Source: a virus (Duplodnaviria > Caudoviricetes). Taken from it: 64,000 bases of DNA. The stretch covers positions 1 through 64,000 of IMG/VR virus record IMGVR_UViG_2636415703_000001, one strand, 5' to 3'. Under the pieces are notes generated by a model. That model was not told the DNA's origin and searched no databases. It saw only the letters and a list, made by a program, of their open reading frames with translations. Below are positions 2,841 through 31,854 of this stretch, piece by piece. A program made the translations under genes and the position numbers. How positions within the stretch are numbered: position 1 is the stretch's first letter; the number at the start of each line of letters is the position of its first letter.

Positions 2841-3318
2841 GGTTTTTCTCCGGTGATTTAAAGGTGTAGTGGCGGCGCTTGCGGACAGAGTTTTCATAGA
2901 GAGGGACGTCTGTGTAATCCACCAGCCCGCGCTCGATGAGTTTTTTAACGGCCTGCAGGAAAAGGGAATGGCTTACGTCAAACTCCTGGCGGACCTTCCT
3001 GGCGGTAATGTAAGGGCGCTTATCGAGCAGCATCAGAATGCACTCTTCGGTTTTCCCCATTTTCAGCGGCGTCAGCTTGGCTGCATAAGCTGGTGACACT
3101 GCCAAGATGTACTCGTTATCAATGGATCGGGTGATCAGACCATTTTTCTGTAGGTCCAACAGCGTTCCCCGAATGACGTGGGTAGACGTGTCGGGCAGGG
3201 CGCGAGTAAAACGCCGGCGCGTGGCAATTCGTTCATCTTTCAGCAGCAGCAGTACGGCTGAGGCCGTCTCCGGATACCGGGCGCGGAAAATTTTAAGTTT
3301 TGGTAAAAGGTGCTTCAA
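2827..3318 (-). CDS. Putative tandem winged-HTH DNA-binding protein
   Basis: Two repeats ending LQKNGLI and LIERGLV, typical of wHTH. Confidence 0.55.
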   Translation of the reverse strand: MKHLLPKLKIFRARYPETASAVLLLLKDERIATRRRFTRALPDTSTHVIRGTLLDLQKNGLITRSIDNEYILAVSPAYAAKLTPLKMGKTEECILMLLDKRPYITARKVRQEFDVSHSLFLQAVKKLIERGLVDYTDVPLYENSVRKRRHYTFKSPEKNHATS

Positions 3319-11828: not shown

Positions 11829-12236
11829 TCACATGAGCGGGGCATTTTTCATCCTTCCCCGCATACACATATCCATCAGTTCCCGCGCCATTGCGCATAC
11901 CGATAGCTGATCCAGTTCCTTTTTAAGCAGGACCTGCTTAGTTGCGCTTTCCACACACAGCGAACCGTAATTCAGATCCTTTCGGCCACGCACTTTGAAG
12001 ATGTAGCCATTAATGGCCTCCAGCCGGTATTGCCGGGGATAGGCGTCGGGATGTACCCGGCATTGTGCGAATGGCGAACGGACAAAGGAGCGCAGAATAT
12101 TGGAGATTATACCGGTGTTGACCAATAGGTTCGGGTATTCCCTCTCCACCAGCCTTGTGACTTCGGCCACTGTCATGTAGTCCTTCCTGCGAATCAACAG
12201 ATCGGCCACCTCAATACTGCTCACCTTTTGTTCCAT
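11829..12236 (-). CDS. lpa: Late promoter activator (Lpa-like)
   Basis: wHTH-like; YPRQYRL..INGY.FKVRGR resembles recalled Lpa family; upstream of pacA apart from the par insertion; operator-like motif upstream. Confidence 0.65.
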   Translation of the reverse strand: MEQKVSSIEVADLLIRRKDYMTVAEVTRLVEREYPNLLVNTGIISNILRSFVRSPFAQCRVHPDAYPRQYRLEAINGYIFKVRGRKDLNYGSLCVESATKQVLLKKELDQLSVCAMARELMDMCMRGRMKNAPLM

Positions 12237-13705: not shown

Positions 13706-14290
13706 TTAAATAAGCCTCCAGTCTGTTGCCAATAAGTCGATAGAAGCAGGAGCCCAGTCGGAAATCGTTTGCTTTTCGGTATCAATGAGCAAAAGCTGGG
13801 GCATCTGAGTTACGGCCACATCCTGGCTGCAATCAAAGTACCGGGCCGGTACGCCGTACATGTCAGATCCGTTAAGTGCTGCGCGTGTCAGCCCTCTGGT
13901 GAGATGTAGATAAACACCCTTCCCCCATGCAGCCCGCGCTACCTTGCAGCCCTCTGACAGCCATAATTGCGCCACGGCCAGCGGCGCATGTTCCTGTCTG
14001 AAGTTCAGTTCGCCTGCATCGATCATCGCCTCATTGCGAAGAATCAGGTCATGCAGCTTAATCAGTGCGGCGCATGCGGCGTAGTTCAGTGTTTTCCCGT
14101 AACCGGTCATTGTCAGGCCGCTTTTGCTAATAATGGCGGCGTAACCTGCATTTGTGGTCTTGGATGTGTCAGTAATGGTGTAACCCAGGCGGGAAATGGT
14201 ATCCAGCAGCGCCATGTAATCGCCTGCATAGTCGGCTTCTGCGTCTGCAATCAGGCTGATAGTCGCGTTTAACTGTTGAGCGGTCATCAT
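13706..14290 (-). CDS. DUF2829/Tad2-like domain protein (TciA-like)
   Basis: C-terminal GCKVARAAWGKG...WAPASIDLLATDW signature. Confidence 0.75.
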   Translation of the reverse strand: MMTAQQLNATISLIADAEADYAGDYMALLDTISRLGYTITDTSKTTNAGYAAIISKSGLTMTGYGKTLNYAACAALIKLHDLILRNEAMIDAGELNFRQEHAPLAVAQLWLSEGCKVARAAWGKGVYLHLTRGLTRAALNGSDMYGVPARYFDCSQDVAVTQMPQLLLIDTEKQTISDWAPASIDLLATDWRLI

Positions 14291-14781: not shown

Positions 14782-14823
14782 CGGTAAAAGCACGTTGCAG
14801 GCGCTCTTACCTGTTGTCCTGTC

Positions 14824-14946
14824 TCAGCATGCCACCAACTGCGCGATAAGCCATTTGTGACCGGCAAACAGTCCTGCATTAAGCAGGCAGTGAAACATGA
14901 CAAACTGCATGGCTCTCATAGTCTTTGTGTAGTTGCTGTCACTCAT
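14824..14946 (-). CDS. Putative 40-aa hydrophobic peptide
   Basis: MSDSNYTKTMRAMQFVMFHCLLNAGLFAGHKWLIAQLVAC; weak SD. Confidence 0.3.
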   Translation of the reverse strand: MSDSNYTKTMRAMQFVMFHCLLNAGLFAGHKWLIAQLVAC

Positions 14947-15295
14947 GCGTTCTGCATCCGGATAAACTGACTGTATGACACTGATGATGCCTGATATGTC
15001 AGGGAAAGCGTTAGTGGTGGCCGGTGCCATACCCGGCAAATAACCTCTTAAGTGACTGGTCAACCTGGTTACTGGCGGCTTTAACCCCTGTGTACGCGAC
15101 TGAAGATGCGGGGGCCAGTCTTGCGATCGCAGCAGCAACTGCGAATGCACCACAACGGAGAGAGCACTGCATTTGACCACCTTACGCCGCGTGTCCCGTA
15201 ACGTTGCCTTTGCGACCTTACAGCTTTGCCGCCAGGGGAAGTTACACAGGGGCAGGCCATATATCCGGCGCAATGCTCTTTCCTGTTGGTGTGAC

Positions 15296-15424
15296 TTATT
15301 TGCGGCGCTTCTGCTTCCTGCCGCCTCTTACCGCCTTGATGAATGTCTCGATGGCATAGATGGCCACCAGCGCATAAATTACAGTGAGAAATGGGTGCTC
15401 TGCAGCAAACTCTGATAACGACAT
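15296..15424 (-). CDS. 42-aa single-TM peptide with basic tail
   Basis: Manual translation MSLSEFAAEHPFLTVIYALVAIYAIETFIKAVRGGRKQKRRK; AAGGA SD. Confidence 0.6.
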   Translation of the reverse strand: MSLSEFAAEHPFLTVIYALVAIYAIETFIKAVRGGRKQKRRK

Positions 15425-16378
15425 ATTGCGTCCTTCGTGGAGGAATGCTGTCTCTTCCAGCAGTCAGAACTAAACGCCCAGGCGCTCAACCCGTGATGGC
15501 AACAACCTATTCGCTGGCTGGTACATTCTGTGTTGACCGGATAACCAAATAGACGAGAAGGAAATAAAACGCCCATGCTCCGCACCCACATGTCCCAAAT
15601 GCCCCACTTTCGGCCACCAGCAGGGATCGCTGGCATATCGTTACTGGCCGGGCTCAATAGTGTTGCTGTGACCGTTTCCCGTTAGCGCGATTGTTCACTG
15701 AGGCGGGACTTAAACCCGCTTTGCTTTCGCAGCCCATCGCTGACCGCCCGTGTTAATTCACAGGCAAGGCTTTCGCCCCGTGGATTCCGTATCCACAACT
15801 CCTACGGTGTGTTAAAGCGATCACCACAACGGCCGAGAACACTGAGCAACCACGCGCCGGGTGCTCATTTAAGTCACCCTACAGTGCCCTCGCCGTTATG
15901 GGCTGGACTTTCCCAGCAGTCACGGCGTGTTGAGGCCTGCCGATACCCTGCCCCGCCACCAGCCAAATTAGCCAGTAAACAGGGCATCGCCTGGTGTTGA
16001 CGTGTAGTGCATGGGAGGCTGGTGCCACCAGCTGTCCGATACGGAATCTACGGACGGGTCATGTAAAGGAATTTGCAAAACGTCAGGTAACGGTTCCGTC
16101 CCGCGTGCGCATAGCCGCATTCCCCCATTTGTGAGCGCGCTGACAGAGGTAATCTTTCGCCAAACGCCAGGTAAAACGACAGAAGCACCAGCACGCTCAC
16201 AAATGGTGATCCCTTACGAGGATCAGGCGGGAACATGTTTAAGCCTCATGGGGCGTTCTATGCGCGGGATTAGTCCATCAACCGCGTTCACTGCCATGAC
16301 AGGAGGGGCTACTTGCCGTTCACCCTACTCATAACACGCCCGGAAAAAGCTAATAACCGAGGGCGGCCCGTTACGAAC

Positions 16379-16451
16379 TGGTGCATGGGGCCTGATTTGA
16401 ACCGGCGGCGGACTCAACACCTTCTGCGTTCGGCCTCTTCGCTACCCATGC
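16379..16451 (-). tRNA. Degenerate tRNA or tRNA mimic with no assignable anticodon
   Basis: Acceptor GCATGGG/CCCATGC plus ACCA, D-arm GCG..CGC, T-arm GCCGG-TTCAAAT-CAGGC; only 19 nt, non-pairing, between D and T arms. Confidence 0.6.
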
Positions 16452-16629
16452 TGAATACTTGCCGGTGCATACCCGGCGCGGACACTTAGGTATCTGGTCA
16501 ACCTGTCCGCTTGCGTCACGTATGAGGTCAGGAAACCTCGCCAGATTTGCAGTGCGTTTGCCTCGCTTGCTAAAGTGTTTTCCCCGTTTCAGCCGTCAGC
16601 ACACCCTGATGCACTCACGGCTGAACCTG

Positions 16630-16655
16630 AAAAAAAGCCCGGAAACTACCGGGCC
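16630..16655 (-). terminator. Intrinsic terminator or attenuator about 70-95 nt after promoter
   Basis: GCCCGG-TAGTTT-CCGGGC-TTTTTTT on minus strand. Confidence 0.7.
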
Positions 16656-16732
16656 TAAAACCCTACTACACACAGCAAAGCCTACTATTATGAATATTGC
16701 ACGGAGCCGTTAAGCCCTTGTCAGCGGGGAGA

Positions 16733-16791
16733 AATGTACACAATGCAGAGTGATGAATCAATGAAAATCTAAGAATCTCCTTAGATTTTCA
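16733..16791 (-). promoter_or_regulatory. Sigma70 promoter with adjacent inverted double operator
   Basis: TTGATT-N17-TACATT; adjacent palindrome TGAAAATCTAAG-AATCTC-CTTAGATTTTCA. Confidence 0.65.
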
Positions 16792-16809
16792 AAGCACATC
16801 GAAGGAGGG

Positions 16810-18099
16810 TTAGCGCCGCTTTATCTTAGGGTTCTTGATGTTCTCGATGTCACCATTCACTTGCGTCCATTTAATGCACCAGCTGTTTATTGCTGCGCGG
16901 ACCTCATTCACTGATACCTCGCTTAGCCCCTTCACTTTCGCCAGCTGGTCAGGCAGTTCGCCACCAGCATCTGCAACAGTCTCATACCCGTCTTTAATCA
17001 GTGCGTTAAGGATGCGTGTCGGTATGGCCAGCTCGGAAACAGGTGCAGCTTTGCCGTCCTGAATGCGCTGGTGAAGACGTGGGAAATCCTGCGCCAGGCG
17101 CTTCATAATCAGTGTGTGCAGCTCGTCATTGATAGTCGTGTCCCACATCGGTTCGAGCTCCGGTAGCAGGCGGAATACAGGGTTTCCCCATATTCCCGGC
17201 ACCACGTCCATAGCCAGCATCATCGCTGTGCGGATCTGTAAATGAAAATCAGCCGTCTCGATCGAGATATCGCGGATACCGTGGAAGACGCTAAGCCCAA
17301 AGTGGAAGTTGTAGATGTAGCAACCCACGTCGCCGGTGCCGTCCGGCAGCTGAAGCAGGAACTGCTGCACGTCTTCCCGGCCATCGTGGAAATCGACGCG
17401 TTCCTTCAGGTGGTTGTAAAGAGCGGTCGTCTTCATCAGGTCATTGGCCGTCGCGGCGCGCTGGCGGCGCTCTTCTCCGACAACCTTATCCGCAATGTTG
17501 AGTTTACTCTGCAGCTCCTGTCGTTTGCTGCTGTCTTTCTTACGATCGGCGCGCATCTGCGAAATGGTTTTGTCACGCTCATTCAGATCACGCGCCAAGC
17601 GCTCAGGATTTTTACGTCGATACTGGGAGTATTCCTGCGTCACTGTGGCAATGGCCAGCTGCGCGGTTGTCAGGGCTGATCTCACTCCCTCCAGCTGGTT
17701 CTCTGCGTTTATCACGCGGTTGTCCGCCTCAAGCACCTGAAGATTAGCCGCCTCGCGTGCCTCTTCGATGGCGTTCTCTGCATCGAGACGGATTTGCGCT
17801 ACTTCACTCTGCAAAGCGGACTGGGCGCTTAGCTGCTGCTGCGCCTGCTCCAGCGTGTCAAGCATCAGGTTGTACGTGTCAGTTTCATGATTAAGGCGCA
17901 TGCCAATATCAATCTGGATCTGCTCCAGCGCGTTCGTGCAGTTATCAAGAAGGCGCTGCTCCAGGTCATCGAGCGTCAGGCGTTTACGGATGGAATTAAG
18001 CTGGCCGTAAGCGGTGACAAAGGCTTGGTGAAGAACTTCGTCATCGACTTTGCATAAAGGGAGATTTTGCAGCTGTTGGAGTGGAGCGAGAGTAGTCAT
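16810..18099 (-). CDS. pmgS: PmgS-like coiled-coil protein with C-terminal alpha-CTD/HhH-like domain
   Basis: LDDLEQRLLDN...NHETDTYN matches a recalled P1 protein of similar length; C-terminal PVSELAIPTRILNAL...KVKGLSEVS. Confidence 0.65.
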   Translation of the reverse strand: MTTLAPLQQLQNLPLCKVDDEVLHQAFVTAYGQLNSIRKRLTLDDLEQRLLDNCTNALEQIQIDIGMRLNHETDTYNLMLDTLEQAQQQLSAQSALQSEVAQIRLDAENAIEEAREAANLQVLEADNRVINAENQLEGVRSALTTAQLAIATVTQEYSQYRRKNPERLARDLNERDKTISQMRADRKKDSSKRQELQSKLNIADKVVGEERRQRAATANDLMKTTALYNHLKERVDFHDGREDVQQFLLQLPDGTGDVGCYIYNFHFGLSVFHGIRDISIETADFHLQIRTAMMLAMDVVPGIWGNPVFRLLPELEPMWDTTINDELHTLIMKRLAQDFPRLHQRIQDGKAAPVSELAIPTRILNALIKDGYETVADAGGELPDQLAKVKGLSEVSVNEVRAAINSWCIKWTQVNGDIENIKNPKIKRR

Positions 18100-18239: not shown

Positions 18240-18539
18240 TTACAGTAGTTTCAGCGCCGTTACGGCTATGGCGGCGACAACGACAATCATCAGTACATTC
18301 AGCAGTACAGACGGCACTTTAATTTCGCCGGTCTCATACTCTGCCTGCGTCATCCTGCCCAGGTAGCTGTGTGAGATCAGCACTGCGTTTTCGTCAAAGC
18401 TCAGCGTAGCCCGAACGTTCTCCAGCGCCTGGCGAGATATCTGACGTGTGGCCAGCTGCACGACTCCGGATCGCATCTTCCCGTTGTCGCCCATGTAGCA
18501 GACCGTATGGTAGTGGTATGGCTTACCCTGCCCCATCAA
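18240..18539 (-). CDS. Phage protein with C-terminal TM helix
   Basis: SYLGRMT motif, hydrophobic C-terminus; overlaps upstream stop. Confidence 0.6.
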   Translation of the reverse strand: MMGQGKPYHYHTVCYMGDNGKMRSGVVQLATRQISRQALENVRATLSFDENAVLISHSYLGRMTQAEYETGEIKVPSVLLNVLMIVVVAAIAVTALKLL

Positions 18540-19054
18540 CTGATAACTACCCAGTCGCTGACGCGCATATCGTTAATGCTCAGATCGTGTATCTCAACGC
18601 CGCCGTCCGGTCGGGTCAGCATCAGCACATCACAGCCTTCATGCTCCTGCTCCAGCGACACAAAGTATCCCGCCTCCCACGCTTCCCGGCGCATCAGCAA
18701 TTCTGGATCCTCTTTCATTTTCAGCAAGGCGCGGTCATAGCTGCACGTAATGGCACCGATTCCAATTTTGTTCAAACCTTCAATCTGTGCCGTAGTCATG
18801 CGTCCGCGTCCCTCTGTTAATGATTTTCTCAAGATGTAACTGATCCCCTTCACGCCGCCGAAATAGTTCAGCTGGCGGTTACTCATGCCGCTGCGCGACA
18901 TAAGCTCCTGCTTCGGTACTCTGAAAATGCCGACGTCCATAGCCATGTCGGCAAAAACCGAAAGCCCCCGGCCCAAGCCGTCACGCGTCTTTTTACGGCG
19001 CGCATACTGCTCAAAGGTCGGGCATCCGGTAAAAAACTGCGCGTCAAAAAGCAC
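18536..19054 (-). CDS. Protein with C-terminal DUF2829/Tad2-like domain (possible internal start 18799)
   Basis: SYDRALLKMK...MRREAW...NDMRVSDWVV. Confidence 0.6.
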   Translation of the reverse strand: MLFDAQFFTGCPTFEQYARRKKTRDGLGRGLSVFADMAMDVGIFRVPKQELMSRSGMSNRQLNYFGGVKGISYILRKSLTEGRGRMTTAQIEGLNKIGIGAITCSYDRALLKMKEDPELLMRREAWEAGYFVSLEQEHEGCDVLMLTRPDGGVEIHDLSINDMRVSDWVVIS

Positions 19055-20850: not shown

Positions 20851-23800
20851 TTATGCGTTTACAATATCGGCGCGCAGCGCATCGAGATCGTGAGAGGAAG
20901 GGATTAGCCATGCGGCCTGTGTGAACTCATTACCGGCGACAGGATCCTCTTCGAAGTTCCAGAATTTTGCGCCGTACTTCTCTTTGATCAGGTCACGCAC
21001 CTGCTTACGCTTCAGTACCGGCTTATCGCTGGTATCCATCAGGACATAAGCGCCACCTGCCGGGAAGTCGATTTTAAAGGTACGGTTTCGCCACTTACGC
21101 GAAGCAACCAGCTCCAGCTCGTTTTTCATGACCTGGAAGCCATCGGACTGCTTCTGTACCTGAACGGTGCGTACTGTCGTTGCCGCGGCCGCTGCGAGTC
21201 TGCTGGCCTCTTCACGGCGGGCCTTCACAACGTCTGGCGACAGCTTGCCGGTTATCAGCGCTTTGTAGTCATCCCACGTCATCGCGTACTCCCGGTATTC
21301 GCCCTTCTCCATCCGCTCCAGCCACGCATAAACCATCGTCAGCTGCTGCTTGATAGCATTGGATGATGCGAATGTTTCCACACTAATTCCGGCATCATCG
21401 AGCGCGCCCAGTGTTGCGCCGGCGTGTAGATAAATTGCAGCCGGTGACTCTGCAACGGTCGCAGCCCGGTCAACGTCACTGAAAGCGTCAAACTTCGACT
21501 TTACAAGCAGCACAGCAATACCGGCCTGGCTGTCGCTTTCGCTCATCTGGCGGAACTGCTGCAGCGCGGCGGCGGCATACTGCTCTGTCAGTGATCTGAC
21601 AGCCTGTACCTTGCCGTCTGCCATCTCGTTACGCAGCTGATCGAACATACCTTCGTACTCATGACGGTTAGAGAAGCCCTCCATGCCGTTACGGAACTGG
21701 CGAAGACTGATAACGTTGCTCCAGTAGTAACGGTCCTGCGCCGAACCCAGGAAGGCGGCATGTGCCTCTTCATCGTTCGCGCCGGTCACTGTCCGCTTTT
21801 TAGAGTCGTTCGCTTCGAAGTCGGCCACCAGCCGTTTGAAGACTTTAACCACGTCCGCCATGCCCGCTTGCTTCCCGTAAGCCTGCAATGCGGTATCGTA
21901 ATTACGGCCAAACATTGCCTTAAAGAAGCCCTGCGCGCTGTAGATGTTGTTATCGACGCTGTACTGGTAAAGCTCACGCTTCAGCTGTTCGTCGCTATGG
22001 TCAGGATACAGCCACGTTTCGGCCGGTCGCTCTTCGCTGGCGCTGATCGCGCCGCCCAGGTAAGCCAGTTTCAGCCTGCCGTCATTGTCGCGGTACAGCC
22101 ACCCGTCTGTGCGCACATTCAAAACGCCCGCGTGAATAGCAGCGTAGAAGTCAGCGCGGCTCAGCGTGTACGCCAGCTCTGTTGGTTCAATGCCCCGTGC
22201 AGCCTTCTGAAGTGCTTTAGCCTGGTCAGTGGTGATATCCACGCGATCGCCCACCAGCGCGGACGGCATTTCTGCAAAGCCACCGATGTTCGGACCGGTA
22301 TAGCAGCGCAGTGGCTTATGGATCAGCTCAACCTCAACCGTATTTTTCTCCGGGAAGAATTTACGGATCTGGAATACGCCCTTATCGTGTTTGTCGTCAT
22401 TCATCCAGATTTCATAGCACGCTCCAATTCGTACCAGCTGGCCGTCGGGCAGCTTCATGTACTGCTCCGGGGCGCGCAGCACGTCCGGATCGACTTCCAG
22501 CACACCGGACTTAATTGCACGTTCCACTTCCCCGCGGGAGCGTTTGATAGTGCTGGCGGCGCTTTTAGAGCGCATCAGCGCCTTACGTGCGCCGCCCAGA
22601 TCCTGCTCCAGCTTCTTTTGCTTCGCCAGGCCTGCACGCAATTCAGCGCGCGCTACACGACGATCCTGACCGCGCCACTGATCCGCTGACCGTTTGCCAT
22701 ACTGCGCGACTTCGCGGTTATAGGCGGCTTCTGCGTCGCTTACGTTCTCACGCAGACCGTCAATGTCCCCGCTGATTGCGTCAAACTCGGCTGTAAGTCG
22801 GGTTATATCTGCCTCCAGCACGTCAGCAGGAGTCGCGGCGGCGACGCTTGCCTTCAGGTAGATATCCAGCTCGGCAGCGGCTTCACGCTCGGCCTGCTGA
22901 CGCTCGGCTTCACGCTTCGCTTTCAGCTGTGCATCCACGCGGGCGCGGCGCTCTTCCGGGTTAGCGGCCAGCAGTAGGCTTTGCTCCTCTTTCGACTCCA
23001 CATCGCCGTTCTTGATGCTGGATACATCGGACTTCATGACGTCGTTGATCCAGTTTTTCTTACGCTGCAGCGTCTCCAGACGGAACTCGTCAAATGACCC
23101 TTTGCCGCAGTAGTAATGCACGCGCATGGTGTCGCGCTCGGAGCCCACGCGGGCGCCGCGGCCGTTACGCTGATCGATGCTGGCAGGCGTCCAGGGTAGT
23201 GTCAGATGGTGCGTATCGGCGGTGCCTTTGTGCAGGTTAATCCCCACTTCGGCCTTTTTGTTGCAGATGATGATCGGCGTGCGGCCTTCGTTGTAGTCGG
23301 CAGCAATGCCTTCCATTCCGGCCAGAGAGGCGTCGCTCAGCGCGGCCTGATAATCTTCATAGCGCGCCAGATCCTGATAGTACTTATCCCATGCGCCATC
23401 TTTGAAACTGCCGTCCGCTTTTTCCACCGGCTCCACCGGCTGCTTAACGGGCTTCACCTTCACGCCGGACGCTTTACTGACTGTCGTGGCGTTGATAATA
23501 CCGATCTGCTGCTCCGTCAGACCCAGGGCGCTGGCGATAATGCGGCGCAGCTTATTGTGCTGGGACTTTTCATCCATGAAGATGATTTGCTTGCCATCCG
23601 GCAGGCCTGCTTTCAGGTTCTCAATCAGCGCGGCATATTTTGGCGGTACTGGGTGCGAGACGTTCTCCATACTGATACCGGCAGCGGCGATCGCGTTCAA
23701 TACCTGCTGCTCCAGCGTGTCGCTCACCACCAACTCTATGACGCCCCCGCGATTCTTCAGCGTGGTTTTGACTACCTTGCTGGTGCGCGTGTCGGCCAGG

Positions 23801-26800
23801 CCGGTTTCCGCATCCTCAGCTGTCTCTTCTTCGTCACCTGCAAGCAGCTGGCCACCGGCCTCGCCAGGCAGCGCACGCGCCACCTGTTTAGCGAGCTCCA
23901 AATCCTCTTCACGGAAACGGAAAGTTATAGCAGAGCGGTACAGGTCCGGATCGATTACCACCTTATCCATGTCGCGGATCACGGAGAAAATGAAATCGTC
24001 GTCGTTCTGAACGATTAACATGGTGCCATCACCATTGTCTTGCAGGGATTCCTTCTGCCCGATACGGCTGGCGCGCTGGCGCAGCTCTTCATACAGCTCT
24101 TTCTGATCGCGGGTCATCGGAACGCCCACGGTTTTCTCGTCGAGGCCTGGAATCTTCACGCTGTCTTTTACATCAGCAGCGGATTTGAGCGTCGTCCAGC
24201 GATGGAAGATACCGCGCAGACCGTCCAGGTTTTTGAAGCCCACCAGCCCCTGCTTGTCCTCCAGTTCGCCGGAAATCTTCTGTACGGTTACGGACTCGGT
24301 TTCACCAAATACCCGCACGAAATCATCCGGCGTCAGGATCCCCATCGCCTTCCACTCATCCAGCGACACGACGTGTGACAGCATGTTAAAGGCGTCAATC
24401 GGGGAGTTAACCAGCGGCGTTGCGGTCAGCATAACGACGCCGCGGCCGTTGTACTTTTTCATCATGTACTGGCTTTTTACGGCCATATCACGGGCAATCT
24501 TAGAGACTGACGGATTCGGCAGGTAAGCCAGCTGGCCCGCCTCGCGTCCGGCGCTGTGCGAGTTACGGTAGTTATGCCCCTCATCCGCGATCACGCTGTC
24601 AAAGTGCATATCCTCAAAGTAAGGGATCTGGCTCTTTTTCTTCGTGCCGGTATCAGCGGCTTTATCGCGGAGTTTGTTACGGGACGTGGCGGCGCGGTGC
24701 GTGGACTTCATCAGGTCCGTGCGGCCATTCTCAATTTGGTTGAAGACTGCCTGGCTGGAGTTTTCCTCGATCGTCTCCGGGCGCATCGGGATATCACCAA
24801 ACTGCTCTTTGGTCATTACCACGGCACGGTAGTTGGAAACCGGGATCATGTTCATGCGCTCAAGCACCGTTGCGGCCGCGGACTCTTTCACGACATTACG
24901 CATCACCGGCTGGCCGTCTTTGTCCAGTTTCGGCTCGTTGTTTTCGTCACGCTCCTGGGCCTGCATGATCTGGCCATCTTCGCCGCGCACTTCGTCCAGC
25001 CCGACAAACAGGATGTTCTGGAAGGCTTCGGCACTGTAGAAACTCTGGGCTTCGTGATACCAGTTTTGAAGGACCGCTTTTGGCACAACGTAGACAGTTC
25101 GTTTACTGCGCCCCACCTCGTAGTTATAGGCTTCCAGCGCCAGTGCCGTCGTGGTTTTACCCAGCCCCGTACCAAAGCCCATGATGCCGCGGCCGTCTTC
25201 CGACAGGCGCCGGACTTCCGCATTCTGATAACTCAGAGGAATACGTTTACCGCTGATCTGCTGCAGCTGGAGAGAGGAAGACGAATGCTCAAACGGAACG
25301 TAGCCGTTAAAGGCGTCGTTATAGTCGCTGACGACGGTTTCCACGTCAGGATGGGTGCGCAGCCAGTCGTTAAAGTGCGACTCCAGATCGCTGATACGCT
25401 TCAGATAAGCGTTAGCGTGGACGCCTCGCGGCTTCACGCCGTTAAGGTAGTTTTCCAGCTGGTTATAGAAGCCGTCTTTGTAGCTGGCGCGCTTAAACTC
25501 AGTTACACCCGCTTTACTGGTGACAGAGCGGACTTGATAGCCAGAGAAAACGCCGTCTTTACCCGCGTAGTTGTCTTCTGCCGTCAGATACCCGTTATCA
25601 TTTTCCAGATCCTGGGTGTATTTGAAGTCATCAAAGCCCTGTTCGATCAGAAACTCTTTGATCAGTCGGCGGTCCAGCCAGCGGGCATTGAGGTTAACCG
25701 TAATGTCTTCGATCGGCGTGTGCTTACGCTTCTCGTTAATGGCTTCCAGCTGGCGGACATAGTTCGCCTTTAACGGGCCATCCGGGGCGTCGTCAATCAG
25801 CCCTGCAAGGCGGGAGACTTTGCCCCGCACGTTGCCGCTGGTGGCGCGGGCCAGCGGCATGATGTTGCCGTTGCCATCGAGGGCGATCTCCGGGAAGGTC
25901 GCCAGGTGCGCCAGCAGCGCCTCGTCATCCTCCGGTAGCTGGCCGGTAAACGCGGCGCGAAAAGCGGCCAGCGCCACAGGAACCAGATCAACATCGCTGA
26001 AAAGGTGCGATACAACCTGCTCCGGGCTGGCGAAATCAACCGCTACGGCCTCGCTGCGGTCTATGGTGCCGTTCAGTAGCGCCGACAGATCGCCTTCCCG
26101 GCTGACGTTGGCCTGGAAACTCAGCCAGCCCTTCGCACTGGCGTCTGATAATCCCGCCAGCTTCAGGCCTTTCGGAGTGCCGTACTGGCTTACTTCCTCG
26201 CTCACCAGGCGGGCAGCGTCGGCAATGATGCCGCTGGCGTCGCCGCCCAGCATCTGCGTATTCAGCGCGTCGTTGATGCGCAGACCAATAATCGAGGCAC
26301 GCATAACGCGCCAGCGGTGGCCGGGTTTCTGCTGCATGGCGAAACGGATCGCGGCGTGAATGCGATCGTCAAACAGCTGCGGGTATTCCACGCTGGCGGC
26401 ATACAGGGCGCGGCTGTCCAGCGACAACATGCCGTTGATGGTGCGCGTTTTTGTCTGTAGTTCGCCAAACGTCGCCGCGCCGAACCGCTCCGCGTCGATC
26501 CCGCTTGATGCCGTGGTGGCGTCTTTAATAAAACGGGTGCCGTCATAGGTGTGCCAGCCCCCAGCCATGAGGCGCTTATCACCTTCAACAGGCGACTGCC
26601 AGACGGCGGCAGGCGTACCCAGCCGATCCCAGTCGATACGGCTGTCAAAGCGGCGCGACAGCGCGGCCTTCATTGCCGCATTCGTCAGCTGGCCATCTTT
26701 TTTCACCACCAGAATGTTGTTGAAGTCCGATCGCTCAGTTTCACCGTGAACAAAGCGACGGCCTTCGGTTTCGAACCACTTGCCACGGATGAACGTTGGC

Positions 26801-27720
26801 CACAGGACGCTTGCAGCCTCAAGTGACTGTTCATCGCTATCATGCACCAGCTGTGTCAGCGCCTCGGTATGTTTGCGCAGTACCCATACATCAACAACCG
26901 TTGCGGTACCGCTTTCCGCAAATGTGCCGGACGGCATGCGGTGCGCACCCAGGAACTCCGCCACGCGGGAAACGCGATCGCGCAGCTTTTTGTTATTGCC
27001 ACCGCCGTCGGTCATTCCGTTGGGAACCACCAGCACCACCAGCCCGCCATACTTCACCTTGTCGATGGTGCGCATAACAAAGTAATGCCCGACATTGGTT
27101 TCATCACGGTAAGCCGGGTCGAGCTCCGCAAAGCCAGTGCGCGAGTCGCCAAAAGGCACGTTGCCTACGGCATGGTCATAGCTGTTGTCCGGCACGGATG
27201 CCGCCAGCTTCTCAAACGCGCCCAGGCGGACATCATCCTCTGGGTGCAGCAGCTGGTTAATGCGTCCCGACGTGTCCGAAATCTCCGCCGACGTCATCAT
27301 TGCGCCGGCGGGCTTAGTCTCCTGGAATACGCCTGTACCTGCGGACGGCTCCAGCATGTGACCGCTGGTAATGCCGTAATCGGAAAACAGATCCCAGATA
27401 CCTTCTGCCATAAACGGCGGCGTGTAGTACTCATACTGACTTCCGCCGCTGCCTTCAAGACCGCCTTCACCGCTATAGCCCGCCAGCACCCGACGCTGAT
27501 CGTCGGTCAGTTTGTTGCCGTCGAAGCCCTGGGGCAATGAGTTAAGCAGCGCGATCGCATTGTCGTTTGCACTCCGGCGCTCACGCTGCAGGCTCACGCC
27601 TTCACGCTTGGTAACACCAAACGCTACTACGGTCCGCTGCTTATGCAGGCGCATGACCAGCCGGATCAGTTCCTCAACCGATCCCGCCTCCTGCACCGCC
27701 CTATTTGCTGGATTTTCCAC
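20851..27720 (-). CDS. darB: DarB antirestriction protein (N6-MTase plus SNF2 helicase)
   Basis: 2289 aa; LEPSAGTG, GNVPF, GTGLGKT, DEGH, TATP, QRNGRGAR. Confidence 0.95.
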   Translation of the reverse strand: MENPANRAVQEAGSVEELIRLVMRLHKQRTVVAFGVTKREGVSLQRERRSANDNAIALLNSLPQGFDGNKLTDDQRRVLAGYSGEGGLEGSGGSQYEYYTPPFMAEGIWDLFSDYGITSGHMLEPSAGTGVFQETKPAGAMMTSAEISDTSGRINQLLHPEDDVRLGAFEKLAASVPDNSYDHAVGNVPFGDSRTGFAELDPAYRDETNVGHYFVMRTIDKVKYGGLVVLVVPNGMTDGGGNNKKLRDRVSRVAEFLGAHRMPSGTFAESGTATVVDVWVLRKHTEALTQLVHDSDEQSLEAASVLWPTFIRGKWFETEGRRFVHGETERSDFNNILVVKKDGQLTNAAMKAALSRRFDSRIDWDRLGTPAAVWQSPVEGDKRLMAGGWHTYDGTRFIKDATTASSGIDAERFGAATFGELQTKTRTINGMLSLDSRALYAASVEYPQLFDDRIHAAIRFAMQQKPGHRWRVMRASIIGLRINDALNTQMLGGDASGIIADAARLVSEEVSQYGTPKGLKLAGLSDASAKGWLSFQANVSREGDLSALLNGTIDRSEAVAVDFASPEQVVSHLFSDVDLVPVALAAFRAAFTGQLPEDDEALLAHLATFPEIALDGNGNIMPLARATSGNVRGKVSRLAGLIDDAPDGPLKANYVRQLEAINEKRKHTPIEDITVNLNARWLDRRLIKEFLIEQGFDDFKYTQDLENDNGYLTAEDNYAGKDGVFSGYQVRSVTSKAGVTEFKRASYKDGFYNQLENYLNGVKPRGVHANAYLKRISDLESHFNDWLRTHPDVETVVSDYNDAFNGYVPFEHSSSSLQLQQISGKRIPLSYQNAEVRRLSEDGRGIMGFGTGLGKTTTALALEAYNYEVGRSKRTVYVVPKAVLQNWYHEAQSFYSAEAFQNILFVGLDEVRGEDGQIMQAQERDENNEPKLDKDGQPVMRNVVKESAAATVLERMNMIPVSNYRAVVMTKEQFGDIPMRPETIEENSSQAVFNQIENGRTDLMKSTHRAATSRNKLRDKAADTGTKKKSQIPYFEDMHFDSVIADEGHNYRNSHSAGREAGQLAYLPNPSVSKIARDMAVKSQYMMKKYNGRGVVMLTATPLVNSPIDAFNMLSHVVSLDEWKAMGILTPDDFVRVFGETESVTVQKISGELEDKQGLVGFKNLDGLRGIFHRWTTLKSAADVKDSVKIPGLDEKTVGVPMTRDQKELYEELRQRASRIGQKESLQDNGDGTMLIVQNDDDFIFSVIRDMDKVVIDPDLYRSAITFRFREEDLELAKQVARALPGEAGGQLLAGDEEETAEDAETGLADTRTSKVVKTTLKNRGGVIELVVSDTLEQQVLNAIAAAGISMENVSHPVPPKYAALIENLKAGLPDGKQIIFMDEKSQHNKLRRIIASALGLTEQQIGIINATTVSKASGVKVKPVKQPVEPVEKADGSFKDGAWDKYYQDLARYEDYQAALSDASLAGMEGIAADYNEGRTPIIICNKKAEVGINLHKGTADTHHLTLPWTPASIDQRNGRGARVGSERDTMRVHYYCGKGSFDEFRLETLQRKKNWINDVMKSDVSSIKNGDVESKEEQSLLLAANPEERRARVDAQLKAKREAERQQAEREAAAELDIYLKASVAAATPADVLEADITRLTAEFDAISGDIDGLRENVSDAEAAYNREVAQYGKRSADQWRGQDRRVARAELRAGLAKQKKLEQDLGGARKALMRSKSAASTIKRSRGEVERAIKSGVLEVDPDVLRAPEQYMKLPDGQLVRIGACYEIWMNDDKHDKGVFQIRKFFPEKNTVEVELIHKPLRCYTGPNIGGFAEMPSALVGDRVDITTDQAKALQKAARGIEPTELAYTLSRADFYAAIHAGVLNVRTDGWLYRDNDGRLKLAYLGGAISASEERPAETWLYPDHSDEQLKRELYQYSVDNNIYSAQGFFKAMFGRNYDTALQAYGKQAGMADVVKVFKRLVADFEANDSKKRTVTGANDEEAHAAFLGSAQDRYYWSNVISLRQFRNGMEGFSNRHEYEGMFDQLRNEMADGKVQAVRSLTEQYAAAALQQFRQMSESDSQAGIAVLLVKSKFDAFSDVDRAATVAESPAAIYLHAGATLGALDDAGISVETFASSNAIKQQLTMVYAWLERMEKGEYREYAMTWDDYKALITGKLSPDVVKARREEASRLAAAAATTVRTVQVQKQSDGFQVMKNELELVASRKWRNRTFKIDFPAGGAYVLMDTSDKPVLKRKQVRDLIKEKYGAKFWNFEEDPVAGNEFTQAAWLIPSSHDLDALRADIVNA

Positions 27721-27799
27721 TGTGTAACTTTTCCTCAGATTGCATAAAGCGGATATGCTTTATTTGATTCTAAAGGTTTATTAAATAGGGCGTATAACT

Positions 27800-29494
27800 T
27801 TGGCTACTAAAAATAAGGCATTGTCCGTTTTAAGCGCGTTAAGGCAGGCATTCCGGGGAGCGACGACTCAGGCACCACAGAGCCTCGCCTGGACCAACGG
27901 ACAGAACGTGGTCGTCTCACGCTCCGGGCTGGCGGCGATGGCCTATAACGAGGGGAAGGCGGGGGAAATGACTTCTGCCGGCGACAGTCTTTACCTGGGC
28001 GCGGAGCTGCCGCTGGACAGGCTGCAGCGATATGCGATTCTGGAGGAAATGGCGAACAGCCCGACGTGCTCAGCCGCACTGAATATCCACATTGGCCACG
28101 CACTCGCGCCGGACAAAAAAACCGGGCTGGCGTTCTCCATCGTGCCGGTTGATCCGTCCGACGCAGAAGGCGCGGCGCGGGCGAAAGAGCTGCAGGACGA
28201 TCTGGGCGCAATGATAAACCGGCATCTGCCGTCGCTGGCCATGACAATGGCTATTTTCGGCGTCTCTTATGTGCGGCCCTATGCCCGGACCGGAAAAGGG
28301 ATCACCAGCCTGGAAAACAGCTATTACTCGCTGCCTTACTTCATTCAGGAGTTTTACAAAGGCGATCAGCTGGTGGGCTTCGGCGGGGATTACGTGCTGG
28401 CACCCGACACCCATACCCGCACGCTGTCTGCGCCGTGGTCGCTGGTGCCGATGAAAAATCCCTACTGGACGCCTACGCGCAACGTGCAGCCGGTAACTTC
28501 CGGCAATCGTGGTTACTCTCTGCTGTCGGAAGAGGAAGACAAGGAGGTAGCGGAAACGCAGAACTACGGTACCAGCTTCCTGGCGCACGCCTATGAACCC
28601 TTCCTGAACCTGGTGGGCGCACTGAATGCGCTGAAGGCAACGCGCTATAACGCCGCCAAAATTGACCGGCTGATCGCCCTGACAACCAACTCACTCGATC
28701 CTGTCGTCGGCGCGAACTACACCCGCACCGTCTCGCAGACGCTCAAACGCCACGGCGAAGCACTCCAGAAAAAAGCGGTGAACGGCAACACCATGCCAAC
28801 CGTGATGAACCATGTGATCCCGGTGATGGGTGACGGCAAGAACGGCATTACAATTGATACGCAGTCGATACCTGCTGACATTACCGGCATCGAGGATGTG
28901 ATGTTTCACCTGCGCCAGCTGTGCGCCGCACTCGGTATCGACTCGACTATGCTCGGATGGGCCGATCAGATGGCAGGCGGGCTGGGCGAAGGTGGCTGGA
29001 TACAGACGGCTATTCAGGCGGCGCTCCGGGCGCAATGGCTTCGCCAGGGCGCGCAGGAGATGATTTACCGGCTGATCGACATTCACCTGGCGTTTAAATA
29101 TGGCAAGGTGTACCCGGTCAATGACCGCCCCTACGTGGTGCAGTTTAACTCCATGAACACCGCCATTCAGGAAGAAGAAAGCCGCGAAATGGACGCCCGC
29201 GCCAACTTCATTACCCTGATGGTGCAGGTTATGGACGCGCTGCAGGCTAATAACAAGCTGGCGGAAAACGATACGTTTATGCGTTATCTGTTCAGCGATC
29301 AGCTGAAAATGGACGGCGGCACGCTCGACAAAATGCTGGCGGAGTTTGAGAAAAGCAGGAAGAAAGCTGACGCGCAGGAGGATGAAGGCAGCGGCATGAT
29401 GAACGAATCGGCGCCTGACGGTTCGGATCCGGCCAGCTGGACTCATGACGAGCTGGTGGCATTTGCCCGTTATGTGACAGCACCAGGCAGCTAA
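27800..29494 (+). CDS. prt: Portal protein
   Basis: 564 aa, divergent from darB as in P1; SMLGWADQMAGGLGEGG motif. Confidence 0.85.
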   Translation: MATKNKALSVLSALRQAFRGATTQAPQSLAWTNGQNVVVSRSGLAAMAYNEGKAGEMTSAGDSLYLGAELPLDRLQRYAILEEMANSPTCSAALNIHIGHALAPDKKTGLAFSIVPVDPSDAEGAARAKELQDDLGAMINRHLPSLAMTMAIFGVSYVRPYARTGKGITSLENSYYSLPYFIQEFYKGDQLVGFGGDYVLAPDTHTRTLSAPWSLVPMKNPYWTPTRNVQPVTSGNRGYSLLSEEEDKEVAETQNYGTSFLAHAYEPFLNLVGALNALKATRYNAAKIDRLIALTTNSLDPVVGANYTRTVSQTLKRHGEALQKKAVNGNTMPTVMNHVIPVMGDGKNGITIDTQSIPADITGIEDVMFHLRQLCAALGIDSTMLGWADQMAGGLGEGGWIQTAIQAALRAQWLRQGAQEMIYRLIDIHLAFKYGKVYPVNDRPYVVQFNSMNTAIQEEESREMDARANFITLMVQVMDALQANNKLAENDTFMRYLFSDQLKMDGGTLDKMLAEFEKSRKKADAQEDEGSGMMNESAPDGSDPASWTHDELVAFARYVTAPGS

Positions 29495-29639
29495 CCAGCG
29501 TTAAAAAAAAGACCGCACATCACATCCAGGGAGGTGTGCGGTTGATAAACGCCTTATCAATGCGATAAAGAGGGAGATGTATCAAGAGTGATATTTCGCT
29601 GACAAGTAAATCAATGCCCCAGAGATACTGACAGGCAGC

Positions 29640-29906
29640 TTATTTTTTATTCGGCTTTTTTGCGATGCTGAATAAATCAGACGCATCAGACTTAGCCGTT
29701 TTTATATCGGGAAGTACCACGCAGTACGGACACGGCCCGACCTCTGTATAACTTCTTTTTGCCATGCTCAGCGCCTGAACTAACGAGTAACAGCTACCGA
29801 TAAAAGCCCGGTATTGTTTATCCGGCAGCTGCTTACAGTCAGTCCGGTTCAGTAGTAACCCGCTGCTTCCGCGGTCGCTGACGTAGAACTTTATGGCCTT
29901 ACTCAT
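29640..29906 (-). CDS. Small Cys-motif protein, paralog 1
   Basis: FYVS..C..LP...R.FIG...CPYC. Confidence 0.6.
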   Translation of the reverse strand: MSKAIKFYVSDRGSSGLLLNRTDCKQLPDKQYRAFIGSCYSLVQALSMAKRSYTEVGPCPYCVVLPDIKTAKSDASDLFSIAKKPNKK

Positions 29907-30498
29907 GCCATGACCTTCTGCTGTGTGTAACTCAAAGTACCATTCGGATGGATGCCATTCGTGATTATCCCTAACCCGTAATAGCGGCAGACATGTCTAT
30001 GCAAAATTTATATAACAAAATTTTTCACATTATCCCGTCTGCGTTGACAAAAGTTATCACTAACTTAATTAATTGAAAAACACTTTTAACGGACTTTATT
30101 TTTATCTTGTACAGATGAAATTTTTTTTCAGCAGAATTAAAATCATAAAATTAATCTAACTGACTGATCTGCCGTCTCGCTTGCATAGTAAACTAGTAGA
30201 ATATGCAAATAATTTCAGATTTATTACCGGTAAAAAAAACCAAAAAAATCTAGAGTGAATTATTTAGCGCCACTGGATTACCGCATAAAGATCAGTTTTT
30301 ATGTACAAGTAATCATTGCTTTTATCAAAAAAATTGACCTTCAATCGAAGCTGTTTAATACAACAAGAAATAATATATCAGAGTTATTATTTTTTGTCTT
30401 CTGACAGTTAGCAGCACAAAAAAAGCCGCACCCGGATATTCCAGTGTGCAGCTTCAGATTATTTTCTTATAGTAAATGCCCTGCTGTGACAAGCGCAG

Positions 30499-30960
30499 CT
30501 AATTGGGCCACTCATATAAAAAGTGTTGCACCGCAACGACCTCCAGGCCTCTCTTGATTTTCACAACCTGCTGAGGGCCGGTCGGCTCAAGTTCGATCGC
30601 CTGTTTAATCAATGGTGCTGCAGGCTTAACAGCCGCCGCTTTGACCGGCTGGCATGCCTGCGTCGCCATCATTTTCTTTGCTTTGGCCGCAGGCCTCTTT
30701 ATGGGCTTCTGGCTGAGATTCAGCAGCCGCTCTTTGCAGGAGTCTGTTTCTTCAGGATTCTGGTTTTTCAAACATACTGGGCATCGCTCGGAATTACTAT
30801 GATGCGTAAGTGCCACCGTCATCGCCTGCTTTGGGGTATAGAGCGTGCCGATAAATATCCGGCTATCAGGCGTTTTCGGCAGAATTTTACAGCCTTCACG
30901 ATGCAGCAGAGTACCGCTTTCATGATGAAAGCTGAGGTAGTATTTCTTTGCTTCTAACAT
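30499..30960 (-). CDS. Small Cys-motif protein, paralog 2
   Basis: YYLS..LHREGC..LP...RIFIG...CPVC. Confidence 0.6.
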   Translation of the reverse strand: MLEAKKYYLSFHHESGTLLHREGCKILPKTPDSRIFIGTLYTPKQAMTVALTHHSNSERCPVCLKNQNPEETDSCKERLLNLSQKPIKRPAAKAKKMMATQACQPVKAAAVKPAAPLIKQAIELEPTGPQQVVKIKRGLEVVAVQHFLYEWPN

Positions 30961-31427: not shown

Positions 31428-31479
31428 GAAATGCTCCCTGTGCTTTGAGACGCGTCACAACAAGAGGTTCCAATCTCCG

Positions 31480-31784: not shown

Positions 31785-31854
31785 CCTCCCGCGCTGGTGA
31801 TCACCTGCGCTGCCTCCGCTTTGCGGGGTATCCCAATGTGATTATGAGGTTTTT

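Follow-up and report, generated by a model that had tools for sequence, protein, structure and literature searches.

A predicted pseudoknotted RNA domain, present twice in a P1-like Pantoea phage-plasmid and homologous in sequence to the P1 'dicF-like region' and the DicF precursor region of E. coli

In the window (the whole 64-kb stretch of phage DNA analysed here), the initial annotation had described a duplicated minus-strand RNA module of about 50 nt. We found the two modules to be paralogous, each representing the 3′ half of a predicted pseudoknotted RNA domain of ~110-150 nt, since the loop of each pairs with a junction ~45-60 nt upstream; the module is thus not the self-contained unit for which it had been taken. 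Judged from sequence, the complete units (A and B) are homologous to the 'dicF-like region' of phage P1 and to the 5′ part of the E. coli region that gives rise to the 190-nt DicF precursor, which gives relatives to a motif that had not been recognised. In this P1-like Pantoea phage-plasmid the pair appears to belong to an early operon, largely non-coding and read from the minus strand, which lies between pmgS-like and lpa-like genes and on the same strand as these flanking genes. The features of this island are listed below in window coordinates.

16764-16789 (strand not applicable): palindromic operator-like site, 10-nt arms and 6-nt spacer, kept in 5 of 5 close Pantoea relatives; putative operator
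16733-16761 (minus): candidate promoter TTGATT-17 nt-TACATT, 8 of 12 consensus positions, picked by eye
16629-16656 (minus): intrinsic terminator T1 of the leader, upstream of unit A, predicted from 8 pairs (6 G-C) and a T-run; conserved in relatives
16549-16570 (minus): unit A hairpin a, from alignment A3 (see below) with pairing assigned by eye; the minimum-free-energy (MFE) structure folds this stretch differently
16541-16546 (minus): unit A pseudoknot 5′ strand AUCUGG, within AA-AUCUGG-C, pairing with the loop 6-mer
16524-16539 (minus): unit A variable hairpin b, GAGGU..ACCUC; the stem differs among lineages and self-complementarity is kept
16478-16510 (minus): unit A hairpin 1, with 7 bp, UAAG bulge, 3 bp and 9-nt loop; first part of the module as annotated initially
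16492-16497 (minus): unit A pseudoknot 3′ strand CCAGAU, located in the loop of hairpin 1; covarying pairing
16461-16477 (minus): unit A hairpin 2, GCCGG-7 nt-CCGGC, with no U tract after it
16379-16451 (minus): tRNA-like element by sequence, without a usable anticodon arm, with a CCA end, 9 nt after unit A
15148-15157 (minus): unit B closing helix, 5′ arm CGUUGUGGUG, from the sequence and the MFE folds of the L002, L073 and L098 units
15128-15143 (minus): unit B hairpin a, CGCAG..CUGCG, from sequence and MFE folds
15115-15120 (minus): unit B pseudoknot 5′ strand GACUGG, within AA-GACUGG-C; covarying pairing
15085-15114 (minus): unit B hairpin b, CCCC..GGGG, from sequence, folds and A3
15040-15072 (minus): unit B hairpin 1, part of the module as annotated initially, from pair counts
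15054-15059 (minus): unit B pseudoknot 3′ strand CCAGUC; covarying pairing
15020-15037 (minus): unit B hairpin 2, GCCGG-8 nt-CCGGC, from sequence
15009-15019 (minus): unit B closing helix, 3′ arm CACCAC-U-AACG, complementary by eye to 15148-15157 with one bulged U; the same helix occurs in unit B of L002

The consensus promoter scan, which needs 9 of 12 positions, does not list the TTGATT-17 nt-TACATT site. On one side of unit A is a long hairpin, on the other the tRNA-like element. ARAGORN reported no tRNA in the window; in L001 and L005, aligned to the window at this place, it called an odd tRNA-Phe with the anticodon at position 28, and in L004 and L002 a different tRNA-like sequence is aligned where the window has its tRNA-like element. 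For the stretch 15660-16378, a diverged form of RNase P RNA or some other large RNA of known kind was considered and rejected, with no Rfam match at E ≤ 10. Short contigs from two RNA studies cover 16212/16227-16469/16516, that is, all or part of unit A, a weak indication as their strand and ends are not given. Runs X15 and X17 yielded 98-kb whole-plasmid contigs, which are uninformative on expression of the island, and the parts left uncovered in X19 and X20 carry no weight either way.

The two modules were recovered with exactly the sequences initially read, copy A at 16510→16461 and copy B at 15072→15020, both on the minus strand. Their distance of 1.4 kb was reproduced by a repeat search, which returned a shared 21-mer (15047-15067 and 16485-16505) with 86% identity and a spacing of 1438 nt. 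A 19-nt loop pattern with 15 fixed bases matched the 64-kb window exactly twice without mismatch, and six times with up to three mismatches where 1.44 matches were expected. The covariance model R1, built from the Pantoea copies of the module, gave these two copies as its only strong matches across the whole 94-kb record, at 83.9 and 83.1 bits, the next scoring 13.2 bits.

Both window copies carry the hairpin-1 features that define membership: a 7-bp stem, a 3′ UAAG/UGAG bulge, a 3-bp inner helix and a 9-nt loop. The observation that the stem sequence differs while pairing is kept proved correct, with four of the seven pairs changed on both sides between copies A and B (C-G/U-A, G-C/A-U, G-C/A-U and A-U/C-G). 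For copy B pairing is kept overall, but its loop-proximal pair is A.A and its outermost pair G.U, where relatives have G-C. Over the nine distinct Pantoea rows 95.5% of cells were paired, compared with 86.9% after shuffling (0 of 500 shuffles reached the observed value) and 20-47% when the partner was slid. Folding energy alone supports the hairpin in copy A (thermodynamic z −2.85) and gives no support in copy B (z −0.01), where the MFE structure is another fold. Hairpin 2, described as conserved, is indeed invariant among the Pantoea copies, and for that reason lends no covariation support there. It is followed by no T-run in either copy and is not among the predicted terminators; without a U tract it is not a terminator.

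The loop had been called conserved but is not uniformly so: its 3′ half varies (AUA vs UCA), in covariation with a strand further upstream. Following UGA, the loop bases and the junction 6-mer form a 6-bp pseudoknot, whose strands are fully Watson-Crick in both window copies (AUCUGG/CCAGAU in copy A, GACUGG/CCAGUC in copy B). Four further compensated versions are known outside these two, making six natural variants in all: GCAUGG/CCAUGC in P1, GUAUGG/CCAUAC in the E. coli prophage Qin, GCUGG/CCAGC in one Enterobacteriaceae genome, and UUAUGG/CCAUAA in Leclercia. In Leclercia the loop sequence itself has diverged and its UGA is replaced, so UGA is not invariant. In A3, an alignment of 44 distinct units, 97.4% of cells were paired against 85.6% after shuffling (reached by 0 of 500 shuffles) and 27-48% after sliding; for the pseudoknot helix the figure was 98.9%, and three of its six pairs change on both sides. 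This covariation amounts to about six lineages rather than 44 independent events, and as 38 of the 44 sequences were gathered by a pattern fixing the 5′ half of the loop and the bulge, the conservation of these parts in A3 is partly by construction.

G.U pairs are frequent in the minus-strand sense (for example in 22/44 and 34/44 rows at two pairs) and would be A.C on the other strand, which favours the minus strand. Direct repeats do enclose a segment with variable cargo, TerB and DUF3927 in some relatives and an SPFH/serine-protease gene in others, as might be expected of a DNA-level element (an operator, recombination or replication site). Such an element, or a chance repeat, is nevertheless scarcely credible, given that compensatory changes keep the pairing, that the many G.U pairs occur in the transcribed sense only, that the loop covaries with a distant 6-mer complementary to it, and that the 19-nt loop pattern has its two exact matches.

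From 5′ to 3′ the predicted domain consists of hairpin a, the AA-NNNUGG-C junction, the variable hairpin b, a linker and hairpin 1, with hairpin 2 closing this order only in Pantoea-type units. Six bases of the hairpin-1 loop are predicted to pair with the junction and so to lock the fold, leaving UGA in the loop, the UAAG bulge and AA before the junction as the conserved unpaired bases. Unit B is additionally closed by a long-range helix, and the MFE folds of the units of L002, L073 and L098, which are homologous to unit B, close with the same helix; unit A is without a clear basal helix. The proposal of a functional motif thus stands as far as a structured minus-strand RNA with compensatory change is concerned, but its loop is not necessarily a ligand or protein pocket, as predicted intramolecular pairing largely accounts for it.

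The homology to P1 and E. coli was found with R1, which matched P1 at L017 18792-18855 (27.9 bits, E 7e-7), which starts at record position 68791 and falls within the feature that the annotation calls 'dicF-like region', downstream of Obanab/P1ban, and E. coli K-12 XL1-Blue at L018 2507-2539 (25.5 bits, E 4.6e-7), between ydfC and dicF, where the hairpin lies 29 nt before the DicF (RF00039) match. R2, a larger covariance model of the domain, scored 90.1 bits for P1, 77.2 for Enterobacter, 72.0 for window unit A and 62.4 for window unit B. A 2-kb stretch compared with the phage collection by megablast and blastn gave no match; it took the covariance model, or a short query, to reveal the P1 link. 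The covariance search that the initial annotation had suggested did yield further homologues with compensatory changes (P1, E. coli, Enterobacteriaceae and Leclercia), and no Rfam family matched either copy, so that neither of the two outcomes named there as speaking against a new motif arose. At gathering score the sole Rfam match in the 64-kb window was C4 (RF01695) at 31477-31564; around the units at E ≤ 10 only chance-level matches appeared, with no riboswitch or ribozyme family, and the E. coli unit had no family match. DicF (RF00039) was absent from the window at gathering score and from the surroundings of the units at E ≤ 10, while the same library found DicF in E. coli at 76.7 bits as a positive control. 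A full-text literature search, with matches judged mostly from summaries, found no description of the domain, and on the motif the available portions of PMC6212723 and PMC5371410 hold only citations of the 1990 DicF paper.

Of 5426 complete E. coli genomes, 4208 contain a match to the domain. Among phages it is matched in 61 records, P1, P7, cdtI, mEp460 and Stx2-converting phages among them, and bears a label in P1 records only, where it is named merely as a region. Over 151 genomes drawn from the order, R2 found it in at least 1 of 151 (the centre genome only), and over 151 drawn from the family in at least 6 of 151; with 25 candidates scored per genome, both counts are lower bounds. A pattern scan of genome contigs returned at least 120 loci, mostly by chance. 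Among the matches listed, five pass the stem-or-pseudoknot filter and one, on an Escherichia albertii contig, has a 7-bp stem and the junction; swamped by chance matches, the scan is uninformative on taxonomic range.

One of the closest known relatives is the 'dicF-like region' in the leader of the P1 ban operon (AF234172, feature 68791-68892), which follows the operator Obanab and the promoter P1ban and has hairpin 1 with an identical loop start and UAAG bulge. It shares with the window units the AA-NNNUGG-C junction, the 6-bp pseudoknot and the variable hairpin b. The P1 domain follows directly on a promoter under repressor control, and its operon contains tRNA genes and a TerB-type gene as well. 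P1 has one copy, whereas the window has two; a strong terminator directly follows the P1 domain, whereas in the window hairpin 2 is followed by the tRNA-like element (A) or the closing helix (B); and the P1 operon follows dmt and leads to ban, whereas that of the window lies between pmgS-like and lpa-like genes, with no ban. The P1 record marks the region by similarity, structure and function being absent from that entry.

In Qin, the ydfC-dicF spacer shares hairpin 1, the junction and the pseudoknot, and has a basal helix with a GUUGUGG arm. The unit belongs to a repressor-controlled early operon, according to the available text of PMC10448788 (DicA/dicBp), but follows three small coding genes and is not near the promoter; it has no hairpin 2, and DicF, which follows it, is absent from the window. 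The same source, as far as available, reports for E. coli that the 5′ end of a 190-nt DicF species is RNase III-dependent, that the 5′ end of a 53-nt species is RNase E-dependent, that the 190-nt species accumulates in stationary phase, and that Qin transcripts of 1146 nt and 1608 nt occur. By a count of 190 nt back from the terminator, the RNase III end would fall at about L018 2431-2435, at the 5′ arm of the basal helix. In an ungapped basal-helix search, 24 of 63 distinct units pair the 5′ arm GGUUGUGG equally long with a CCGUGACU-type 3′ arm, which by sequence lies inside DicF, so the partner of the GGUUGUGG arm in Qin is ambiguous.

Its compact pseudoknotted fold and conserved unpaired bases might suit a ligand-sensing riboswitch or a self-cleaving RNA, as the initial annotation proposed. 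We regard this as very improbable: what lies downstream is, depending on the lineage, DicF, a terminator, hairpin 2 with the tRNA-like element or the closing helix, and so no conserved expression platform; no such family matched at E ≤ 10; and UGA is replaced in Leclercia. There is no sign of catalysis either, as the known E. coli ends need RNase III and RNase E (PMC10448788, available text). The C4 antisense RNA of P1/P7, a small structured phage RNA cut from a longer early transcript, belongs to a different family. C4 loops have their complementary sequences in other parts of the transcript; the complementarity of the window domain, unlike that of C4, stays inside one compact unit.

The sequence, the homology and the covariation are established; what the fold does is inferred. 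Tentatively, and at somewhat less than even probability, we propose that the knot-locked domain serves a polycistronic early transcript as a cassette for processing and stability. Cleavage by host RNases would occur at its borders: RNase III would act on the basal helix or the neighbouring long hairpins and RNase E or RNase P just downstream, while the compact fold itself would withstand degradation and insulate neighbouring RNAs from nucleases entering from the opposite side. The RNAs so insulated would be the tRNA-like RNA after unit A, the micro-ORF mRNA after unit B, and DicF in Qin. The differing stem and pseudoknot sequences of the two copies may prevent mispairing within one transcript. 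A processing role would not obviously need conserved unpaired bases or a pseudoknot.

Alternatively, the functional product could be a trans-acting stable small RNA, an excised or terminated domain that would bind or titrate a conserved target of the host, protein or RNA, early after derepression, the two copies doubling the dose. This would fit the annotated promoter and terminator of P1, which bracket a ~190-nt RNA consisting mostly of the domain, as well as the helix that closes unit B and the L266 unit, the flanking of unit A by a long hairpin and a tRNA-like handle, and the stationary-phase accumulation of the 190-nt species. Few single-stranded bases are left for antisense pairing, however, no partner is known, and a functional RNA and a stable by-product are not separated by these data; we consider this account improbable.

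The main rival to the processing and stability cassette is a cis-acting processive antiterminator RNA of the kind of the HK022 put RNAs; the Bacillus EAR element is also a cis-acting processive antiterminator RNA. The domain would then bind its own RNA polymerase, which would pass intrinsic terminators and be shielded from Rho over the long untranslated stretch that comes next. In P1 a strong terminator lies ~30 nt after hairpin 1, and transcription has to get past it if the tRNA genes, tciABC and ban are to be expressed; in Qin the domain precedes the DicF terminator, read-through of which is required for dicB expression; and in P1, Qin and the window at least 500 nt of untranslated RNA follow the domain. 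In phage cdtI the domain lies ~350 nt after the end of cI and ahead of the following same-strand genes, a position recalling the HK022 stretch between cI and nun, which we take to be putL. Conserved unpaired bases common to unrelated phages also suggest a host target. The putL and putR elements, like the window units, occur as two copies per phage; they are stem-loops of ~60-70 nt in early transcripts near repressor-controlled promoters, and occupy two divergent operons where the window copies occupy one; they act without a phage protein, and 'pseudoknot' has 0 occurrences in the main text, as available, of the paper describing them (PMC9378689).

Against an antiterminator, no relation to put in sequence or structure was seen, R1 at E ≤ 10 giving 0 matches in HK022 22000-32000, a 10-kb stretch with both put regions. 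T1 lies upstream of unit A, so that unit A cannot act on it; no terminator-like site comes close after unit B, and after unit A there is only a weak one (5 pairs) at ~90 nt. The helix closing unit B and the L266 unit, moreover, resembles an excision site. We therefore hold antitermination to be unlikely on balance, and it is doubtful, indeed quite unlikely, that the domain joins put and EAR as a third and so far undescribed class of RNA-only element that promotes processive antitermination or counters Rho. If it did, carriers of the class would be P1-type phage-plasmids and lambdoid phages, among the latter Stx-converting ones and the Qin prophage of E. coli K-12. Transcription would be enabled to proceed past leader terminators and across the long untranslated parts of early operons, and the pseudoknot 'code' that differs between copies would let each unit fold alone.

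Whatever its action, the domain is widespread and lies outside every RNA family library, adjoins DicF, a well-studied regulator of cell division and metabolism, and heads the P1 ban operon. Its six natural pseudoknot variants are ready compensatory mutants for testing how early prophage transcripts are processed, stabilised and carried past terminators. The Pantoea version indicates that a single transcript can hold two units whose pairing codes differ, and that a unit may couple to an anticodon-less tRNA-like handle instead of an sRNA.

The window is a P1-like phage-plasmid, closely related to non-mobilizable Pantoea plasmids of about 90 kb. The RNA units described here occupy a region with few ORFs downstream of a pmgS-like gene; this region also contains an intrinsic terminator and some 700 nt of highly conserved sequence rich in hairpins. 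Landmarks of the window are as follows:

31477-31564, C4 antisense RNA (Rfam match)
16810-18099, minus strand, PmgS-like gene
11829-12236, minus strand, Lpa-like gene

The minus-strand sequences of the two 50-nt modules, copies A (16510->16461) and B (15072->15020), were identical to those transcribed in the initial annotation. A repeat search of the window recovered their common 21-mer (86% identity, spacing 1438 nt), and the 19-nt loop pattern gave two exact matches there, and six with up to three mismatches against 1.44 expected. When a covariance model built from the Pantoea copies (R1) was run over the whole 94-kb record, only copies A and B scored strongly (83.9 and 83.1 bits; next best 13.2 bits). 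Five distinct relatives, all Pantoea plasmids, retain both copies, and a sixth record with both copies, labelled Acinetobacter, has the module matches of one of these five. Match statistics, module positions and sequences are identical between L002 (Pantoea sp. plasmid) and L006 (labelled Acinetobacter venetianus), which means either that the phage-plasmid crosses genera or that one of the records is mislabelled.

The proposal that the closing stem differs between the copies while its pairing is kept was borne out. In stem 1, the seven-pair closing stem of hairpin 1, both sides have changed at four pairs. In the Pantoea module alignment (nine distinct rows), 95.5% of cells were paired, compared with 86.9% after shuffling (none of 500 shuffles reached the observed value) and 20-47% once the partners were slid. 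The copy B stem contains A.A and G.U pairs, and its hairpin is not the minimum-energy fold (z -0.01; copy A, z -2.85). Of the conserved loop and next hairpin that had been described, hairpin 2 is indeed invariant among the Pantoea copies and so contributes no covariation there, but the loop varies (AUA versus UCA).

When flanks were compared across all instances, the module proved to be just the 3' half of a larger unit. In hairpin 1, the six loop bases after UGA are complementary to a 6-mer within a conserved AA-NNNUGG-C junction, positioned 45-60 nt upstream of the loop 6-mer and directly 5' of the variable hairpin b. The AUA/UCA difference arises because these bases covary with the junction, within the window itself. 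Besides one wobble version and three one-mismatch versions, four fully Watson-Crick versions of this pseudoknot were seen:

GUAUGG/CCAUAC, Qin type
GCAUGG/CCAUGC, P1 type
AUCUGG/CCAGAU, window copy A
GACUGG/CCAGUC, window copy B

In an alignment of 44 distinct units, whose variants represent about six lineages rather than 44 independent events and 38 of which came from loci gathered with a pattern in which the bulge and the loop's first half are fixed, the pseudoknot helix was 98.9% paired with two-sided changes at three of six pairs, and the whole structure had 97.4% of cells paired against 85.6% shuffled (0 of 500 reaching it) and 27-48% slid. Further homologues with compensatory changes were found, including a divergent unit of an Enterobacteriaceae genome (GCUGG/CCAGC pseudoknot, with a hairpin 2, a basal helix and a new stem 1) and one of Leclercia plasmids (UUAUGG/CCAUAA), in which the loop sequence itself is different. 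This covariation shows a conserved multi-helix RNA domain locked by the pseudoknot, which the window contains twice. Many pairs are G.U in the minus-strand sense, which fits an RNA transcribed from that strand and not a duplex-DNA site; a DNA site or a chance repeat ranks last and is barely credible.

The covariance-model search that the initial annotation had called for, run with R1, also matched phage P1 (L017 18792-18855, 27.9 bits, E 7e-7) and E. coli K-12 XL1-Blue (L018 2507-2539, in the ydfC-dicB interval, 25.5 bits, E 4.6e-7). The P1 match lies within a feature labelled "dicF-like region" in the P1 record, directly after the operator Obanab and the promoter P1ban, and the domain is followed in order by a terminator, two tRNA genes, tciABC, a third tRNA and ban. 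The E. coli match lies 29 nt 5' of the Rfam DicF match (L018 2568-2619). With the P1 region as blastn query, 4208 of 5426 complete E. coli genomes matched, 494 of them over at least 80% of the query. Used in turn as blastn query, the E. coli unit matched 61 phage records, including mEp460, cdtI, Stx2-converting phages, P1, P7, RCS47 and SJ46, and among these the domain is labelled only in P1 records.

Units A and B, the larger domains containing the two copies, matched no Rfam family at gathering score or E<=10; no curated model of the fold was found in Rfam, nor a published description in a literature search judged mainly from search results. In P1 this type of locus already bears an annotation, and in E. 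coli the region belongs to a known precursor, so the system is not of a new kind; the Pantoea form is a variant. It has two units per operon with differing pairing codes and an extra hairpin 2, is coupled to tRNA-like elements that lack an anticodon, and has neither DicF nor a terminator directly downstream; DicF was absent from the window in the Rfam search.

Elements at the borders of the units are as follows:

15157-15148 (CGUUGUGGUG) with 15019-15009 (CACCAC-U-AACG), minus strand, closing helix of unit B
9 nt after unit A, CCA-ending tRNA-like element, read from sequence

The same helix also closes the minimum-energy folds of homologous units from loci L002, L073 and L098, with arm variants including GUUGUGGU/ACCACAAC and GUUGUGGC/GCCACAAC. 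An alternative pairing of the same length, with a CCGUGACU-type 3' arm that by sequence is inside DicF, exists in 24 of 63 distinct units, each of which carries GGUUGUGG as its 5' arm; therefore the 3' partner of the GGUUGUGG arm is ambiguous. PMC10448788 describes the 5' end of the 190-nt E. coli DicF species as RNase III-dependent and that of the 53-nt species as RNase E-dependent. Measured 190 nt back from the terminator, the RNase III end would by our arithmetic fall near L018 2431-2435, on the 5' arm of the closing helix.

Unit A has no clear basal helix and is flanked by a long imperfect hairpin (inverted repeat I2) and the tRNA-like element. ARAGORN called no tRNA in the window, this element included. 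Because an unlike tRNA-like sequence fills the same position in the plasmid relatives L004 and L002, a tRNA-shaped handle is suggested to be what matters there. At 3979-4062 of L002 and L006, ARAGORN called a UUA-anticodon tRNA ("tRNA-Stop") that might be an ochre suppressor; it lies within the island of these two relatives, in an insert missing from the window and other relatives.

Upstream of the units, a palindrome and a putative weak promoter, TTGATT-17-TACATT, were read from the sequence, the promoter not being reported by a consensus scan. The leader between this promoter and unit A (16629-16800) ends in an intrinsic terminator, and several relatives have 70 nt of additional leader that holds another terminator-like hairpin (L001 ~3090-3170). 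The ~700 nt at 15660-16378 (minus) hold no ORF above 107 aa and are nearly invariant in relatives except at hairpin tips; the enclosing 15560-16520 has a fold z-score of -3.9. This segment has the look of additional units in the same processed RNA island. It has several GAAA-type loops, one relative lacks the tip of its 18-bp hairpin (16125-16206), and the E. coli dicF-dicB spacer shares parts of it (GGGGAAUGCGGCUAUGCGCACGCGG; CUGGUGGCACCAG). A third unit-like segment (15819-15831 with 15662-15673, minus), without the hairpin-1 motif, opens with the GUUGUGGUGAU arm of unit B; by eye, closure on GGUCACAGCAAC is possible through 12 pairs with one mismatch. The 16-nt arms 15778-15793 and 16038-16053 (inverted repeat I3; 94% complementary, 244 nt apart) could form a long-range or kissing contact within the island. 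UCGCUUUAACAC at ~15811-15822 (minus), invariant among close relatives, appears to resemble a boxA-type NusB/S10 site.

Two hydrophobic micro-ORFs on the minus strand, 15296-15424 (42 aa) and 14821-14946 (41 aa), are interleaved with the RNA units and annotated as hypothetical proteins in relatives, which have TerB plus DUF3927 or an SPFH/protease gene inserted in this interval. Proteins with a Tad2-like (Thoeris anti-defence 2) domain flank the island on the same strand at 13706-14290 (40.7 bits, above the Pfam cut-off) and 18536-19054 (20.3 bits, below it).

As a weak hint of expression, two RNA studies (runs X19 and X20) each gave two short, low-depth contigs, which show neither strand nor true ends: 15674/15713-15891/15894, around the third unit-like segment, and 16212/16227-16469/16516, spanning all or part of unit A, the tRNA-like element and the next segment. 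Runs X15 and X17 gave the whole plasmid as a single contig and are uninformative on island expression.

The main rival for the function of the domain is put/EAR-like antitermination. The P1 unit is directly followed by a terminator, the DicF terminator precedes dicB, the unit in cdtI lies ~350 nt after cI, and in P1, Qin and the window the units precede long untranslated stretches; however, R1 shows no likeness to the put sites of HK022 and the leader terminator of the window is upstream of unit A, and we consider antitermination rather unlikely. Ranked next, a role of the units as stable trans-acting RNAs appears improbable, and ligand sensing or catalysis, ranked after it, very improbable. 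Our tentative preference, itself held at less than even confidence, is that the domain is a processing and stability cassette. Differing in stem and pseudoknot sequence, units A and B would be kept from mispairing in one transcript; by inspection, the A junction and the B loop would form only four of six pairs. The fold would mark cut sites in the early polycistronic RNA, and its compactness may shield adjacent RNAs from nucleases entering from the opposite side.
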